Positions 1,542 through 14,355 of a stretch of 64,000 nucleotides of DNA are shown piece by piece; position 1 is the first letter of the stretch, and the number at the start of each line of letters is the position of its first letter. Made by a program: the position numbers and the translations under genes. The stretch lies in NCBI RefSeq assembly GCF_053078305.1, contig NZ_CP166879.1; one strand, written 5' to 3'. The notes beneath the pieces were generated by a model. That model had not been told where the DNA came from. It saw nothing but the letters and a program-made list of their open reading frames with translations, and searched no databases.

Positions 1542-2423
1542 TTAGTTCTGCGGATTCAACGCGCTAAGGATAAAGTCCACCATCTGTTCGCGATAAACAT
1601 CGCCGTGACGATCGGAAAAAGCATCAATGTGTTCGCCATCCGGGATTAGGATCAACCGTTTTGGCTCTTTTGCCAGGCTATACAACTTTTCGCTGTGCTG
1701 CCATGGGATAACGTGATCAGCTTTACCGTGAATGAGTAAAAGCGGGATCGGGCTGACGCTGGCGATGTAATTTTCGCCGCTGTAACTCTCATCAAGTAAG
1801 TAGCCACTGCCGGGGATCATCTGGTTGGCGATGGTTGCATAAGAGGCAAATGTGGAGTCGAGGATCACCGCACGTATGCCTTCACGATCACCCTGACCAA
1901 TAACAGCAAGAATATTCGCCCCGCCAATACTCTGCCCGAACAGCACCAGCCGTTGTGGGTTTACATCACTGCGATGGCGCACCACATTGATGGCGCTTTG
2001 CGTATCGTCCAGCAATCCGGCCTGGGACGGCGTGCCTTTTGATTTACCAAACCCGCGATAATCAAACATAAAAACGTTGAAATTACGCTCGGGTAACCAA
2101 CTGACCAGCGGCCAGTGGGCGGACATATTTCCGGCATTGCCGTGAGCATGAATGATGGTTGCGATGGCGTTGTCAGCAGGGCCCGTCGAAGAAGGGATAA
2201 ACCAGCCTTGCAGACGAGTACCGTCCTTAGCCGTAAATTCGACGGATTCCGCCGACCAGGGGTCGGGACCGTAAATTTTATCGTCAGGATAATAGAAGAA
2301 GTTGATGGCAACGCGCGGCACTAAATAAACGCAGAAGGCAACAACAAAGAGAATAAACAGAATTTTGAGAACGCGTTTGTTCACTGGCAGTGCCATAACC
2401 TTTCCTTGCGACTTCTTTATCAT
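1542..2423 (-). CDS. yfhR: alpha/beta hydrolase family protein YfhR
   Basis: 293-aa ORF with N-terminal TM segment and GQSIGG serine hydrolase motif; synteny next to suhB. Confidence 0.75.
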   Translation of the reverse strand: MIKKSQGKVMALPVNKRVLKILFILFVVAFCVYLVPRVAINFFYYPDDKIYGPDPWSAESVEFTAKDGTRLQGWFIPSSTGPADNAIATIIHAHGNAGNMSAHWPLVSWLPERNFNVFMFDYRGFGKSKGTPSQAGLLDDTQSAINVVRHRSDVNPQRLVLFGQSIGGANILAVIGQGDREGIRAVILDSTFASYATIANQMIPGSGYLLDESYSGENYIASVSPIPLLLIHGKADHVIPWQHSEKLYSLAKEPKRLILIPDGEHIDAFSDRHGDVYREQMVDFILSALNPQN

Positions 2424-2540
2424 CCATTAATCGGGGAAAGATGGTGGGAGAGTGACGAAAGAAAGTAAAGCGGTGAGGAAGTATTTCGGAATAGCGCCTG
2501 AAAGGCGAGGGCGGGTGAGTGATATCACCCGCCTGAGTCA

Positions 2541-3344
2541 TTAACGCTTCAGAGCGTCGCTTAACTCGTCACGCATGTTCGCCAGCATGGCTTTAACAAC
2601 ACGCGGGTTACCAGCAACGATGTTACCGGTCAGCATATAGTTATGACCACCGGTGAAGTCGCTGACGATGCCGCCCGCTTCACGAACCAGCAGCTCGCCT
2701 GCAGCGAAGTCCCACGGGCGCAGACCGATTTCAAAGAAACCGTCAACACGACCCGCAGCGACGTAAGCCAGATCCAGCGCCGCAGAACCGGTACGACGGA
2801 AGTCTGCACATTCGTTGAACAGTTTGCCGACGATGTTGATGTAGGTAGTGGCGTACTGTTTTGCTTTGAACGGGAAGCCGGTCGCCAGAATAGTACCGTC
2901 GAGATCGCGAGCGGTGCTGCCGCGCAGACGGTAGCCGTTCAGCTGTGCGCCCTGACCGCGAGTGGCGGTGAACAGTTCGTTACGCATAGGATCGTATACC
3001 ACAGCAACTTCGGTGCGGCCTTTGATACGAACGGCGATAGATACCGCGAAGTGCGGCAGACGTTTGATAAAGTTGGTAGTGCCATCCAGTGGATCGATAA
3101 CCCATTGAACATCCTGATCAGTACCTTCAAGTTCACCGCTTTCTTCGGTGATGATGGTGTGCTGTGGGTAAGATTTACGAATCGTGTCGATAATCACCGC
3201 TTCGGCAGCTTTATCTACGTTGGTCACGAAATCGTTACTGCCTTTCTGGCTCGCTTCTACAGCGTCCGGGGTTTCATAGTTTTTGGCAATTAAATTACCC
3301 GCCTTGCGCGCTGCGCGCACGGCGATGTTCAGCATCGGATGCAT
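2541..3344 (-). CDS. suhB: inositol monophosphatase SuhB
   Basis: 267-aa ORF, IMPase motifs (WVIDPLDGT), synteny. Confidence 0.9.
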   Translation of the reverse strand: MHPMLNIAVRAARKAGNLIAKNYETPDAVEASQKGSNDFVTNVDKAAEAVIIDTIRKSYPQHTIITEESGELEGTDQDVQWVIDPLDGTTNFIKRLPHFAVSIAVRIKGRTEVAVVYDPMRNELFTATRGQGAQLNGYRLRGSTARDLDGTILATGFPFKAKQYATTYINIVGKLFNECADFRRTGSAALDLAYVAAGRVDGFFEIGLRPWDFAAGELLVREAGGIVSDFTGGHNYMLTGNIVAGNPRVVKAMLANMRDELSDALKR

Positions 3345-3462
3345 CGGTCTCTCTCACTGGATGTTAAAGAACGGGAAAACGGCGCAGAGTATAGCAGCGA
3401 GATCGGCATCTGTCTTCGTTTTATGATAAGATGCGCGAATAATCTTTAGACGAAGAAAGACA

Positions 3463-4203
3463 ATGCTGCAAAATATTCGAATTGTGCTGGTGGAGACGTC
3501 ACACACCGGCAATATGGGTTCTGTTGCCCGTGCCATGAAAACAATGGGATTAACCAATCTGTGGCTGGTTAATCCACTGGTGAAACCTGACTCCCAGGCT
3601 ATTGCCCTGGCGGCGGGGGCCAGCGATGTGATTGGTAATGCTCACATCGTCGATACGCTCGACGAAGCGTTAGCCGGTTGTAGCCTGGTGGTGGGCACCA
3701 GCGCACGTTCCCGCACGCTGCCGTGGCCGATGCTCGACCCGCGCGAATGCGGTCTGAAAAGCGTCGCTGAAGCGGCAAATACCCCGGTGGCGCTGGTCTT
3801 TGGTCGCGAGCGCGTCGGCTTGACCAATGAAGAGTTGCAGAAATGCCATTATCATGTCGCGATTGCGGCAAACCCGGAATACAGTTCGCTGAACCTGGCA
3901 ATGGCGGTTCAGGTTATTGCCTATGAAGTGCGTATGGCCTGGCTGGCAACTCAGGAAAATGGCGAGCAGGTCGAGCATGAAGAGACGCCGTATCCGCTGG
4001 TCGATGATCTGGAGCGTTTTTATGGTCATCTGGAACAAACGCTGCTGGCAACCGGTTTTATCCGTGAAAACCATCCGGGGCAGGTGATGAATAAATTGCG
4101 CCGTCTGTTTACCCGTGCGCGCCCGGAAAGCCAGGAATTGAATATCCTGCGCGGGATTCTGGCTTCTATAGAGCAGCAGAATAAAGGTAATAAGGCCGAA
4201 TAA
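3463..4203 (+). CDS. trmJ: tRNA (cytidine/uridine-2'-O)-methyltransferase TrmJ
   Basis: 246-aa SPOUT-family ORF divergent from suhB. Confidence 0.9.
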
Positions 4204-10126: not shown

Positions 10127-11410
10127 ATGACAGAAGCGATGAAAATTACCCTTTCTACCCAACCTGCCGACGCGCGCTGGGGAGAAAAAGCAACTTACAG
10201 CATTAATAATGATGGCATTACCCTGCATTTGAACGGGGCAGACGATCTGGGGCTGATCCAGCGTGCGGCGCGCAAGATTGACGGTCTGGGCATCAAGCAT
10301 GTTCAGCTAAGCGGTGAAGGCTGGGATGCGGATCGCTGCTGGGCATTCTGGCAAGGTTACAAAGCCCCGAAAGGCACGCGTAAAGTGGAGTGGCCGGATC
10401 TGGACGATACCCAGCGCCAGGAACTCGATAACCGCCTGATGATCATCGACTGGGTGCGTGACACCATCAACGCACCGGCGGAAGAGCTGGGGCCATCGCA
10501 ACTGGCACAGCGTGCTGTTGATCTGATCAGCAACGTCGCGGGCGATCGTGTGACTTATCGGATCACCAAAGGCGAAGATCTGCGTGAGCAAGGTTATATG
10601 GGGCTGCACACCGTCGGACGCGGTTCAGAACGTTCTCCGGTATTGCTGGCGCTGGATTACAACCCAACTGGCGATAAAGAAGCGCCAGTGTACGCGTGCC
10701 TGGTAGGTAAAGGTATCACTTTTGACTCCGGTGGCTACAGCATCAAACAGACTGCGTTTATGGACTCGATGAAGTCGGACATGGGCGGCGCGGCAACGGT
10801 TACCGGGGCGCTGGCATTTGCCATTACGCGCGGACTGAACAAGCGCGTGAAGCTGTTCCTCTGCTGTGCGGATAACCTGATTAGCGGCAATGCGTTCAAG
10901 CTGGGCGATATCATCACCTATCGCAACGGTAAAAAAGTTGAAGTGATGAACACTGATGCCGAAGGGCGTCTGGTGCTTGCCGATGGTCTGATTGATGCCA
11001 GTGCGCAGAAACCGGAAATGATCATTGATGCGGCGACCCTCACCGGGGCGGCGAAAACTGCGCTGGGTAATGATTATCACGCGCTGTTCAGTTTTGACGA
11101 TGCGCTTGCCGGTCGTTTGCTGGCGAGTGCCTCACAAGAGAACGAACCATTCTGGCGTCTGCCGCTGGCGGAATTCCACCGCAGCCAGCTGCCGTCTAAC
11201 TTTGCCGAACTGAACAATACCGGAAGCGCGGCGTATCCGGCAGGCGCGAGCACGGCAGCGGGCTTCCTGTCGCACTTTGTTGAGAACTATCAGCAAGGCT
11301 GGCTGCATATCGACTGCTCGGCGACTTACCGTAAAGCGCCGGTTGAACAGTGGTCTGCGGGTGCTACGGGACTTGGTGTGCGCACGATTGCTAATCTGTT
11401 AACGGCGTAA
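10127..11410 (+). CDS. pepB: aminopeptidase B PepB (M17 family)
   Basis: 427-aa ORF, leucyl aminopeptidase motifs. Confidence 0.9.
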
Positions 11411-11418
11411 ACTAATAT

Positions 11419-11518
<100 letters not shown>

Positions 11519-11543: not shown

Positions 11544-12329
11544 GTGGTTCTTATGTCCGAAACAAAAAATGAACTTGAAGACCTGCTGGAAAAAGCAGCA
11601 ACCGAACCGGCGCACCGCCCGGCCTTTTTCCGTACTCTACTGGAATCCACCGTCTGGGTGCCTGGTACGGCGGCGCAGGGCGAGGCTGTGGTTGAAGATA
11701 GCGCGCTTGATTTACAGCACTGGGAAAAAGAAGACGGCACCAGCGTCATTCCTTTTTTTACCTCGTTAGAAGCACTTCAACAGGCGGTTGAAGACGAACA
11801 GGCATTTGTCGTAATGCCCGTTCGCACATTGTTTGAGATGACCCTTGGCGAAACGCTCTTCCTTAATGCCAAACTGCCGACCGGTAAAGAATTTATGCCG
11901 CGTGAAATCAGTTTGTTGATTGGTGAAGAGGGAAATCCGCTGAGCAGCCAGGAAATCCTGGAAGGCGGTGAATCGCTGATATTATCGGAAGTCGCAGAGC
12001 CGCCAGCACAAATGATTGATTCACTCACCACCTTATTTAAAACCATTAAGCCTGTGAAGCGTGCTTTTATTTGTTCAATTAAAGAGAACGAAGAGGCACA
12101 GCCTAATTTACTTATTGGCATTGAAGCCGATGGTGATATCGAAGAAATTATTCAGGTGGCGGGAAGTGTAGCGACCGATACATTACCTGGCGATGAACCA
12201 ATCGATATTTGTCAGGTGAAAAAAGGGGAAAAAGGAATTAGCCACTTTATTACCGAACATATTGCGCCATTCTATGAACGTCGCTGGGGTGGTTTTTTGC
12301 GTGACTTTAAACAGAATCGGATAATCTAA
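11544..12329 (+). CDS. sseB: serine sensitivity enhancing protein SseB
   Basis: 261-aa ORF; synteny; alternative start at 11553 (MSETKNE). Confidence 0.8.
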   Translation: MVLMSETKNELEDLLEKAATEPAHRPAFFRTLLESTVWVPGTAAQGEAVVEDSALDLQHWEKEDGTSVIPFFTSLEALQQAVEDEQAFVVMPVRTLFEMTLGETLFLNAKLPTGKEFMPREISLLIGEEGNPLSSQEILEGGESLILSEVAEPPAQMIDSLTTLFKTIKPVKRAFICSIKENEEAQPNLLIGIEADGDIEEIIQVAGSVATDTLPGDEPIDICQVKKGEKGISHFITEHIAPFYERRWGGFLRDFKQNRII

Positions 12330-12646
12330 AATATGCCGCCCCAAAGGGCGGCATTCGGGCTTACCTGCTGCTCTGAAGGTTGTTAATCACCAGTAAATTG
12401 TTACCGGAGAGACTCCGGTTATTATTTACCTCGGTTAACAGCGCACCAGAAACAATAAGTACGATACAAAAGCACCGTATCTTCATTGTGCGGTCCATGC
12501 GAAGACCGCATCACGACAGCACCACTGGCGATATTGCCGCGATAGCAAGCGCTGTGAAACACCTGCATTTACGGCCACGGAACATCCTTTCCTAAAGCCA
12601 GCGCCCGTTTGCGAGACGGCGGAAAGGGCCGGTGTCGATAATACGC
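12330..12646 (-). ncRNA. ryfA: ryfA-like RNA copy 1 (candidate small-protein mRNA, TimP/RyfA family)
   Basis: location between sseB and sseA; minus-strand terminator hairpin at 12332-12353; conserved internal hairpins; predicted length ~300 nt; 5' end inferred. Confidence 0.45.
12361..12498 (-). CDS. 45-codon small hydrophobic ORF inside ryfA-like copy 1 (MDRTMKIRCFCIVLIVSGALLTEVNNNRSLSGNNLLVINNLQSSR), candidate small membrane toxin
   Basis: hand-translated minus strand; conserved in copy 2 with 2 synonymous and 2 conservative changes; not in ORF track (below size cutoff). Confidence 0.4.
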   Translation of the reverse strand: MDRTMKIRCFCIVLIVSGALLTEVNNNRSLSGNNLLVINNLQSSR

Positions 12647-12661
12647 TAAATAAACAATAAT

Positions 12662-12704
12662 TACTCTCTTTTGCTTGACAAAAAGAGAGTTGCTGGCGAA
12701 TATT
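12662..12704. promoter_or_regulatory. palindromic divergent promoter region of ryfA-like locus copy 1
   Basis: inverted repeat ACTCTCTTTT-GCTTGAC-AAAAGAGAGT centred on TTGACA (plus) / TTGTCA (minus) -35-like hexamers. Confidence 0.35.
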
Positions 12705-12709
12705 GCTCT

Positions 12710-12812
12710 GCTGTGAAGCACCTGCGTTGCTCATGCAACACAAGTCAATCTGCTGGAGAGGCCGCGAACCAAACCGGCAACAAATAACCGCCTGATTTTG
12801 GCGGTTTTTTGT
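12710..12812 (+). ncRNA. candidate short plus-strand sRNA divergent from ryfA-like copy 1
   Basis: TTGACA-N18-AATATT promoter-like sequence at 12675-12704 and hairpin+T6 terminator at 12786-12812; internal hairpin GTTGC-loop-GCAAC conserved in copy 2 with loop change. Confidence 0.3.
12786..12812. terminator. bidirectional rho-independent terminator (copy 1)
   Basis: AACCGCC-TGATTT-GGCGGTT followed by TTTTTT. Confidence 0.55.
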
Positions 12813-12930
12813 TGCTTAAAGAAAGTGAATTTACATGTTTAAGTAATATCTTTTACCGGTTAGTATTTTTAATATTGAGCGGGATTTGTTTATATTTGTC
12901 TGAATTCGGACTAATAAGCCAGGTTATTTT

Positions 12931-13010
12931 ATTACTGACATATTGCGCCATTCTATGAACGTCGCTGGGGTGGTTTTTTGCATCACTTTAAACAGAATCG
13001 GATAATCTAA
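12931..13010 (+). pseudogene. duplicated 3' fragment of sseB carried on repeat unit 2
   Basis: near-identical to sseB codons for ...HIAPFYERRWGGFLRDFKQNRII* but without upstream gene. Confidence 0.55.
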
Positions 13011-13327
13011 AATATGCCGCCCCAAAGGGCGGCATTCGGGCTTACCTGCTGTTCTGAAGGTTGTTGACCACCAGTAAATTGTTGCCGGAGAGACTCCGGT
13101 TATTATTTACCTCGGTTAACAGCGCACCAGAAACAATAAGTACGATACAGAAGCACCGTATCTTCATTGTGCGGTCCATGCGAAGACCGCATCACGACAG
13201 CACCACTGGCGATATTGCCGCGATAGCAAGCACTGTGGGGTGCCTGTATTTACGGTCATGGAACATCCTTTCCTAAAGCCAGCGCCCGTTTGCGAGACGG
13301 CGAAAAGGGCCATTAAGAATAATACTC
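13011..13327 (-). ncRNA. ryfA: ryfA-like RNA copy 2
   Basis: 681-bp offset copy of 12330..12646 with conserved terminator hairpin at 13013-13034. Confidence 0.4.
13042..13179 (-). CDS. 45-codon small hydrophobic ORF, copy 2 (…VVNNLQNSR)
   Basis: same frame and length as 12361..12498; differences F(ttt>ttc) and G(ggt>ggc) synonymous, I>V and S>N conservative. Confidence 0.4.
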   Translation of the reverse strand: MDRTMKIRCFCIVLIVSGALLTEVNNNRSLSGNNLLVVNNLQNSR

Positions 13328-13391
13328 TCATGTTTGAATAATTACTCTGTTTATTATCTTGACACAGCCAGGCATAAAAGAGAGTATTTCA

Positions 13392-13495
13392 ACACTGTGG
13401 GGTGCCTGCGTTGCTCCGGCAACACAAGTCAACCTGCTGGAAAGGCCGCGAACCAGACCAGCAATAAAAAACCGCCAAATTCGGCGGTTTTTTAT
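13392..13495 (+). ncRNA. candidate short plus-strand sRNA, copy 2
   Basis: homolog of 12710..12812 ending at hairpin AAAAACCGCC-AAATTC-GGCGGTTTTT. Confidence 0.3.
13466..13495. terminator. bidirectional terminator shared by sseA and ryfA-like locus
   Basis: perfect hairpin flanked by A6 and T6, 15 bp beyond sseA stop. Confidence 0.6.
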
Positions 13496-13509
13496 TGCCT
13501 GTAAAAAGC

Positions 13510-14355
13510 TTATTTCAATGGCTCAACCGGTAAATCTGCCCGCGCGCCCCATTCACTCCATGCGCCGTCGTACAGTTTCACGTTTGGCACATCCAGCGTC
13601 GCGAGTGCCAACAAAACCACGGCTGCTGTTACACCAGAGCCGCAGCTGACGATAATCGGTTTGTCATAGCTGACGCCGCGACCAAAAAATATCGCATCCA
13701 GTTCATCGGTCGTTTTTAGTTCGCCTTCGCGCACCAGTTCCGTCCACGGAACGTTCAATGCACCTGGAATATGTCCGCGACGTAAACCTGGGCGAGGTTC
13801 ATCAACTTCTGCGTTAAAACGTGCAGCCGGGCGGGCATCAATAATTTGCGCCGTATTTTCATGGCTTGCCAATAACACATCGGTTACTTTCACCACTACT
13901 TCAGGATTAAACGCGGCGTTAAACTCTCCTTCCGGCAGCTCTACTGCACCTTCTTCTAACAACAGATCATCGCGCTGCCAGCCTGCAAGTCCACCCCCCA
14001 GAATCGACACTTTCTCTACACCAAAGGTGCGCAGCATCCACCATGCTCGTGGGGCTGAGAAAAGATTACCTTCGTCATAGACAATCAGGTGCTTATCCTG
14101 GTTAACGCCTAATTCACGCATCGCCACGGCGAACGTTTCCGGGCGCGGCAGCATGTGCGGAAGCGGGGAAGTGTGATCAGAAAGCGCTTCGATATCAAAA
14201 AACACTGCGCCGGGAATATGTCCATTCAGATACTCCTGAGCAACGTTACGATCTTCCTGTCCAGGCGACGCCATGCGGGCATCGATAATCTGAATTTCCG
14301 GGTCATCAATATGTTCGGCGAGCCAGTCGGCTCCTACAAACCATGTCGTGGACAT
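13510..14355 (-). CDS. sseA: 3-mercaptopyruvate sulfurtransferase SseA
   Basis: ORF track 13510..14514; recognised start MSTTWFVGADWL gives 281 aa; rhodanese CSGSGVTA motif. Confidence 0.9.
   Translation of the reverse strand: MSTTWFVGADWLAEHIDDPEIQIIDARMASPGQEDRNVAQEYLNGHIPGAVFFDIEALSDHTSPLPHMLPRPETFAVAMRELGVNQDKHLIVYDEGNLFSAPRAWWMLRTFGVEKVSILGGGLAGWQRDDLLLEEGAVELPEGEFNAAFNPEVVVKVTDVLLASHENTAQIIDARPAARFNAEVDEPRPGLRRGHIPGALNVPWTELVREGELKTTDELDAIFFGRGVSYDKPIIVSCGSGVTAAVVLLALATLDVPNVKLYDGAWSEWGARADLPVEPLK

Follow-up and report, generated by a model that had tools for sequence, protein, structure and literature searches.

A truncated sseB 3′ end as the probable scar of a founding event in the ryfA/timPR arrays of Escherichia coli

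The gap between sseB and sseA in the DNA analysed here (a stretch of 64,000 nucleotides, hereafter the window) contains a second, cut-off version of the sseB 3′ end. This remnant, S′ (12928–13010, + strand, 83 nt, bounded by alignment and by its PGAP equivalents), is a gene-fragment pseudogene and duplication scar of sseB: its parent can be named, it is truncated, its frame is disabled by an in-frame TGA at 12936–12938, and it sits at the boundary of a repeat unit, ending in a TAA at 13008–13010. Very probably it is a dead fragment that goes back to a single founding event and to later crossing-over, with no function of its own. The genes of the locus are pepB (10127–11410 in the list of open reading frames, ORFs), sseB, two copies of ryfA, sseA (− strand) and yfhM. 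REP/BIME-like palindromes (11405–11518) separate pepB from sseB; they give weak naRNA4 matches below threshold and probably account for the many scattered genome-wide matches of an 11-kb query.

The remnant and its parent gene

Intact sseB (11553–12329, +, 258 aa) is identified by the ORF list, by NCBIfam family NF008624 (481.8 bits against a cut-off of 295), by matches to both Pfam SseB and Pfam SseB_C, and by PGAP annotation of near-identical genomes. The parent segment, S (12246–12329, +), is defined by the repeat finder and by alignment as the last 84 nt of the gene, including its TAA (12327–12329). These 84 of sseB's 777 nt are all that the remnant keeps, and 5′ of it stand a spacer, X, and then a timR terminator. 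The repeat finder pairs 12257–12556 with 12938–13237 (family D1, 300 nt, 97%); alignment begins the homology at 12928, where S′ opens with TTTATTAC (sseB 12246), and extends it to the TAA at 13008–13010. Both methods thus bear out the initial annotation's claim of a duplicated sseB 3′ end that stops at the same TAA with a ryfA hairpin 3 nt further on. That annotation had placed the remnant at 12931–13010, which is right for the end but starts it too late.

S and S′ are identical at 80 of 84 positions (71 of 73 counted from 12938), an agreement that, judged from the two sequences, lies far beyond chance. They are separated by three substitutions (12254 C to 12936 T, 12301 G to 12982 A, and 12303 G to 12984 C) and by one A deleted from S′ relative to S; over the final ~30 nt there are no differences in the window. 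A further extension of the remnant to the left (AATAAGCCAG against AATTAGCCAC, with a 5-nt insertion) has no statistical support and was rejected. Longer SseB variants returned by a protein search (P0001, P0003 and P0005) are internal duplications unconnected with the remnant. S′ forms the left edge of a repeat unit of ~681 bp and opens units 2 and 3 in every array examined; read along the + strand, a unit consists of the sseB tail, ryfA/timP (−), a divergent promoter region, timR/ryfB (+) and spacer X. Tandem Repeats Finder, whose longest period (500) is shorter than the 681-nt unit, reported no repeat.

Two toxin-antitoxin units of different pairing type

From their sequences, the neighbours of S and S′ are ryfA/timP toxin genes, each accompanied by a divergent timR/ryfB-like sRNA gene. 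Copy 1 of ryfA (12328–12632, −), of the alpha pairing type, has its TimP ORF at 12361–12486 and its terminator hairpin at 12333–12354; copy 2 (13009–13313, −), of the beta type, has the corresponding elements at 13042–13167 and 13014–13035. Both copies match Rfam RF00126 over its full length (320.6 and 323.1 bits, respectively; gathering score 80), and their 41-aa TimP ORFs score 88.6 and 84.2 bits against NCBIfam toxic_TimP (NF040796; cut-off 45). The hairpin is ATGCCGCCC-TTTG-GGGCGGCAT in both copies, with 9 pairs and −20 kcal/mol in context. In copy 1 it lies 3 nt beyond the sseB TAA, and the same spacing is found in copy 2; the initial annotation had the spacing right and the coordinates (12332–12353) one base off. 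The U-rich tail that follows the hairpin, AUUUUAGAUU, is the complement of the sseB stop codon and last codon. Because this tail passes the complement of the TAA, and because the Rfam matches end at 12328 and 13009, ryfA overlaps the sseB stop codon. A terminator-like hairpin with a T-rich tail is also seen on the + strand inside each ryfA, antisense to it (12403–12419 and 13084–13100); as the ryfA hairpin has no T-run on the + strand, the one in unit 1 may be the actual end of sseB transcription.

The first timR/ryfB-like gene (12675–12812, +) was delimited by a promoter and terminator scan, by complementarity to ryfA and by comparison with published work (Fris et al., 2017, PMC5333039): it has a promoter-like TTGACA-18-AATATT (12675–12704), a pairing box (12710–12724) and a terminator with T-run (12786–12806). 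The second (13359–13498, +), recognised through repeat families D4 and I4, has a TTGACA at 13359–13364, a pairing box at 13393–13408 and a terminator at 13461–13498. The transcript ends of both genes are predicted. After the second gene comes sseA (13510–14355, −, from the ORF list), which adjoins the last unit directly, with no X spacer between them.

Within each unit, the ryfA variable region and the timR 5′ end carry the same + strand box, so the two RNAs would be complementary, and the box differs between the alpha and beta units. The alpha box of unit 1 has GTGAAACACCTGC with GTGAAGCACCTGC (ryfA 12553–12567 and timR 12710–12724); the beta box of unit 2 is a stretch of 16 nt identical in ryfA (13231–13246) and timR (13393–13408). 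Pairing boxes are 15–17 nt long. Predicted duplexes are stronger for cognate partners (−45.2 and −43.7 kcal/mol) than for non-cognate ones (−37.1 and −30.5 kcal/mol). The variable region and the timR 5′ end co-vary as pairs, with gamma and delta types in other E. coli and a type of its own in Salmonella. The promoter/timR halves of the two units are only ~78% identical, and the internal timR terminator is ~78–80% identical. In the arrays examined, the beta unit, where present, is always the one next to sseA.

Much of this arrangement has been described in other organisms. Shigella dysenteriae has tandem ryfA1 and ryfA2 genes of ~305 nt with divergent ryfB1 and ryfB2 genes of ~100 nt, and an effect of RyfB1 on RyfA1 has been shown there at the RNA level (Fris et al., 2017, PMC5333039). 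The window shares with that pair the chromosomal site, the tandem organisation and the 5-nt variable region complementary to the cognate divergent sRNA; the existence of two ryfA/ryfB pairing types is thus already published (PMC5333039). In Salmonella, ryfA encodes the small toxic membrane protein TimP, and a divergent, non-overlapping sRNA, TimR, base-pairs with its mRNA; apart from the RNA-level result for RyfB1/RyfA1, experimental demonstration of TimP toxicity and of repression by TimR comes from Salmonella only (Andresen et al., 2020, PMC7667032). The TimP family is common to the Salmonella locus and the window. Unlike the window, the Salmonella locus has one unit, its own pairing type, no remnant and no X, and a DUF5066 gene lies between timR and sseA.

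Spacer X and the IS128 annotation

Spacer X (~12816–12927) is ~110 nt of AT-rich junction DNA (28% GC) between unit 1 and the remnant. Local alignment against shuffled sequences finds no convincing similarity of X to sseB or sseA (p = 0.09–0.9) or to the ryfA units (the lowest of four tests giving an unconvincing p = 0.03), and no similarity to the rest of the window is detectable. The region downstream of Salmonella timR is likewise not similar (p = 0.35–0.51). A phage collection yields no match, and the sole match in a plasmid collection is a mislabelled E. coli chromosome. Among 5,426 complete E. coli genomes, X is found in 2,243 (41%) and only at this locus, with two copies in 14 genomes.

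X is also the core of a match to the sRNA family IS128 (RF00125; 12768–12977, −, 210 bits, gathering score 80), which spans the terminator of the first timR, X and the start of S′. Positions 1–50 of the model fall on the sseB remnant, and many of the pairs there are non-canonical. The model fits K-12-type sequence better (261 bits at 2164–2372, −, of the locus in K-12 TG1), and in K-12 its 5′ 50 nt correspond to an orphan ryfA promoter plus 17 nt of ryfA, not to the sseB remnant. In K-12, strand-specific Northern blots gave no IS128 signal, whereas they revealed an antisense RNA of ~95 nt (PMC3175480); this RNA is probably timR.

Distribution of the joint in E. coli and its relatives

The survey of the same 5,426 complete E. 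coli genomes separates several forms of the locus. X runs contiguously into the remnant in 156 genomes, whose arrays have two or three units; the joint is AAGCCAGGTTAT|TTTATTAC in each multi-unit genome that was examined. This identity of the joint points to a single origin. A K-12-type joint occurs in 1,831 genomes at most, since the search also joins pieces that are not collinear. In 392 genomes there is a third form, in which X leads directly into an orphan timR of a fourth pairing type. The remaining ~59%, of which O157 is an example, have one unit, with timR adjoining sseA and no X. At the other extreme, 19KM1831 (locus 1947–3807) and MEW each have three annotated timP genes and two remnants, and PapM-32-1 has two remnants within the 2.1 kb fetched. 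In ST648, the intact-length sseB (locus 667–1444) is annotated as frameshifted because the T-run in its tail is one T longer, a change that the remnant does not carry.

Outgroups come from a loose ryfA-hairpin pattern search of genome contigs that returned mostly chance matches; among the matches listed, the usable ones are two non-coli Escherichia, one Citrobacter and one Superficieibacter, alongside some more distant enterobacterial matches. The two divergent Escherichia (91% and 95% identical), Salmonella, the Citrobacter and the Superficieibacter all carry one unit and lack both X and the remnant, and the polarity of the change rests on the two non-coli Escherichia genomes. In the other Citrobacter and Enterobacter genomes examined, no ryfA lies between sseB and sseA. 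Several Enterobacteriaceae have a gap with neither ryfA nor timR, holding only REP-like sequence or an unrelated regulator gene, and the toxin-antitoxin module therefore appears to be a presence/absence polymorphism at this site.

Origin of the joint

The best explanation would be one historical event in the E. coli lineage, in which a second toxin-antitoxin cassette, together with ~110 nt of non-local AT-rich DNA, was joined at a point 84 nt before the end of sseB. Such a joining would leave sseB whole on the upstream side and put a truncated tail before the ryfA copy nearer to sseA. Since the sseB stop-codon region encodes the terminator U-tract, ryfA could stay functional only if the joint lay within sseB; the exact position of the joint, at −84, would be a historical accident of the breakpoint. 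In the initial annotation a complete ryfA was expected to drag adjacent sseB sequence along with it. That expectation is sound for ~6–10 nt (the U-tract overlap is ~6 nt) and does not account for a length of 84 nt.

The cassette could have arrived in two ways. The first, which has a little under an even chance, is import: foreign or divergent DNA carrying sseB, ryfA, timR and X would have recombined homologously on its left (in sseB or pepB), while its right end was joined illegitimately at sseB −84, so that the remnant would be the displaced tail of the resident gene and not a copy. Import would fit an X that is AT-rich and non-local, an internal terminator and alpha, gamma and delta modules that are strongly diverged from the ancestral beta type of the outgroups, a beta unit that always lies next to sseA when present, and a timPR module whose presence between sseB and sseA varies across Enterobacteriaceae. 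Against it, no donor was found: X occurs neither in the phage and plasmid collections nor at any other locus fetched; in addition, unit 1 shows nothing visibly foreign in its sseB tail or its ryfA, which obliges the model to assume homogenisation at a later date.

The second is the model of the initial annotation, a plain head-to-tail duplication of local sequence from sseB −84 to just past timR, followed by point mutations. The copies are indeed head to tail at a spacing of 681–684 nt, homology runs from the sseB tail past the timR terminator by ~12–15 nt, and the tandem ryfA1/ryfA2 pair has been called a duplication (PMC5333039). A local duplication, however, predicts sseA-side sequence at the joint, where X matches nothing local (p = 0.09–0.9 as above). 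It also leaves the ~78–80% identity of the promoter/timR halves and internal terminator, against ~99% for flanking genes across E. coli, as a divergence too great for an event that is absent from Escherichia relatives 91–95% identical. Plain local duplication is therefore rather unlikely. The remnant does hold up as a by-product of an added ryfA unit; a simple local origin of that unit does not, given the non-local X, the diverged promoter/timR halves and the different pairing types. Because X has no local source and the timR terminator and promoter/timR halves fall so far below their flanks in identity, import of a divergent cassette is modestly favoured over duplication with filler DNA.

Rearrangement of the array and the K-12 locus

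Once the joining had taken place, the sseB tail together with the conserved last two-thirds of ryfA (the 3′ ~220 nt), a block of ~300 nt, would provide homology for unequal crossing-over and gene conversion. Crossing-over within this shared block would give arrays of one, two and three units as well as deletion derivatives, and the remnant would by now be gathering independent frame-breaking lesions in different lineages.

Traces of exchange between S and S′ vary among strains. The two segments share rare variants in ST648, WB61, ETEC1738 and 19KM, where they differ at 0–1 positions, against 4 in the window's lineage. Across 12 genomes, which are phylogenetically non-independent, the mean S–S′ distance is 3.86 within a genome and 4.34 between genomes (permutation p = 0.04). 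The signal of concerted evolution is weak overall and absent from the window's lineage.

After X, K-12 has 14 nt of the remnant, TTTATTACCGAACA, and then jumps to a ryfA 5′ end, of which the first 17 nt and the promoter remain; a second timR follows. X, a 14-nt vestige of the remnant and a ryfA 5′ end in one place suggest that the K-12 form arose from a two-unit array by deletion. In K-12 TG1 (locus 1729–2540), ryfA has an alpha box, the adjacent timR is of the gamma type, and the alpha-type timR is the distal, sseA-proximal one; RNAduplex predicts that ryfA pairs more strongly with the distal timR (−49.5 kcal/mol) than with the proximal one (−40.5 kcal/mol). Unit 1 of 19KM1831 is also a chimera, with a beta ryfA and a gamma timR. 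A broader proposal, with somewhat less than an even chance, is that the sseB tail and 3′ part of ryfA may act as a portable homology arm of ~300 nt, and that the gap may be a recombining cassette array with at least four mutually orthogonal TimP/TimR types, chimeric units and orphan antitoxins, in which IS128 would be a relic of a deleted second unit.

Coding status and possible function of the remnant

All of this treats the remnant as a non-coding, untranslated relic without function by itself, a reading that is very probable as part of the whole best explanation and that, for expression, is drawn from sequence context. The sseB frame of S′ is closed by the TGA at 12936–12938, which was made by a C-to-T change together with the 1-nt deletion, and the ORF list of the window has no ORF of at least 20 aa ending at 13010. 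A 23-codon conceptual translation of S′ aligns only to positions 236–257 of the 258-position NF008624 (32.6 bits against the cut-off of 295, E = 4e-8) and has no Pfam match; the SseB_C domain stops at residue 243, short of this tail. As had been claimed, the remnant has neither a start codon nor an upstream gene, its upstream sequence being spacer X and the timR terminator. It is flanked by convergent terminators, one on the + strand (12786–12806, plus a T-run) and one on the − strand (13035–13014). Two features count against a silent remnant: a sigma-70-like match that the promoter scan gives within X (12869–12896), and a 41-aa TTG ORF of other strains, described below.

In RefSeq E. coli, PGAP annotates the allele with the deletion as a 72-nt pseudogene ("hypothetical protein; missing N-terminus") and the allele without it as an 87-nt [quoted passage not shown]. 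The feature is thus already known as an annotated pseudogene fragment next to a published tandem toxin-antitoxin pair; these entries label the identical stretch automatically and attach no interpretation. Two different 1-nt deletions have arisen independently in S′ in separate lineages, showing that no coding constraint acts on it.

One role that the remnant might still have is that of a cis element of ryfA copy 2, kept by selection for its terminator context or for stability of the RNA 3′ end. In its favour, the TAA and last codons encode the terminator tail AUUUUAGAUU, and in the window S′ does not differ from S over its final ~30 nt. Intrinsic terminators, though, need just a hairpin and a U-tract, which suffice by themselves; the 5′ two-thirds of S′ carry lineage-specific indels and substitutions; and in K-12-type and FDA1288-type genomes the remnant is lost jointly with ryfA, not separately. 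Selection for a cis element is accordingly improbable.

A longer ORF with its own start was looked for in the window and none was found; a 41-aa ORF with a TTG start exists mechanically only in strains without the 1-nt deletion, running into the intact remnant in most carriers (at 2001–2126 of the ST648 locus). A 49-aa ORF at 12809–12958 is not taken as coding, since it begins with TTG, indels among strains shift its frame and no family matches it. A start codon, an intact frame and conservation in carriers, as in a functional small protein, are all lacking in S′. That S′ belongs to an expressed small protein with the C-terminal 22–27 residues of SseB is most improbable, for the open 41-aa TTG ORF of strains without the deletion is its one point of support, and it is opposed by the TGA that shuts the frame in the window with no ORF ending at 13010, by the two independent frameshifts in other lineages, by indels among strains in the X portion, and by the missing Pfam match of a tail beyond SseB_C.

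Implications

Short toxin genes with antisense RNA partners are repeated elsewhere in E. coli: the ldr/rdl long direct repeats, ibs/sib and zor/orz are tandem type I toxin-antitoxin units with copy numbers that vary among strains. They resemble the window in having such units head to tail. They differ from it in that their antisense RNAs overlap the toxin genes, whereas timR in the window is divergent and pairs in trans. The description of the S. dysenteriae pair (PMC5333039) does not contain the terms sseA, sseB or IS128 and does not describe the remnant, the X spacer or variation in array copy number. The wider dynamics of the array, the chimeric K-12 locus and the explanation of IS128 were not found in the literature searched.

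The remnant itself is of little weight. As a junction scar, it marks the common descent of the multi-unit ryfA/timPR arrays of E. coli from one founding event, and it helps explain why pathogenic and laboratory strains differ in the number and type of their ryfA copies, a question that arises from the S. dysenteriae study (PMC5333039). It further points to K-12 as the carrier of a two-unit array in decay, whose two timR genes differ in pairing type, and it offers a simple origin for the doubtful IS128 sRNA annotation. Where timR or ryfA is to be deleted in E. coli, the form of the array in the strain would be worth checking first.
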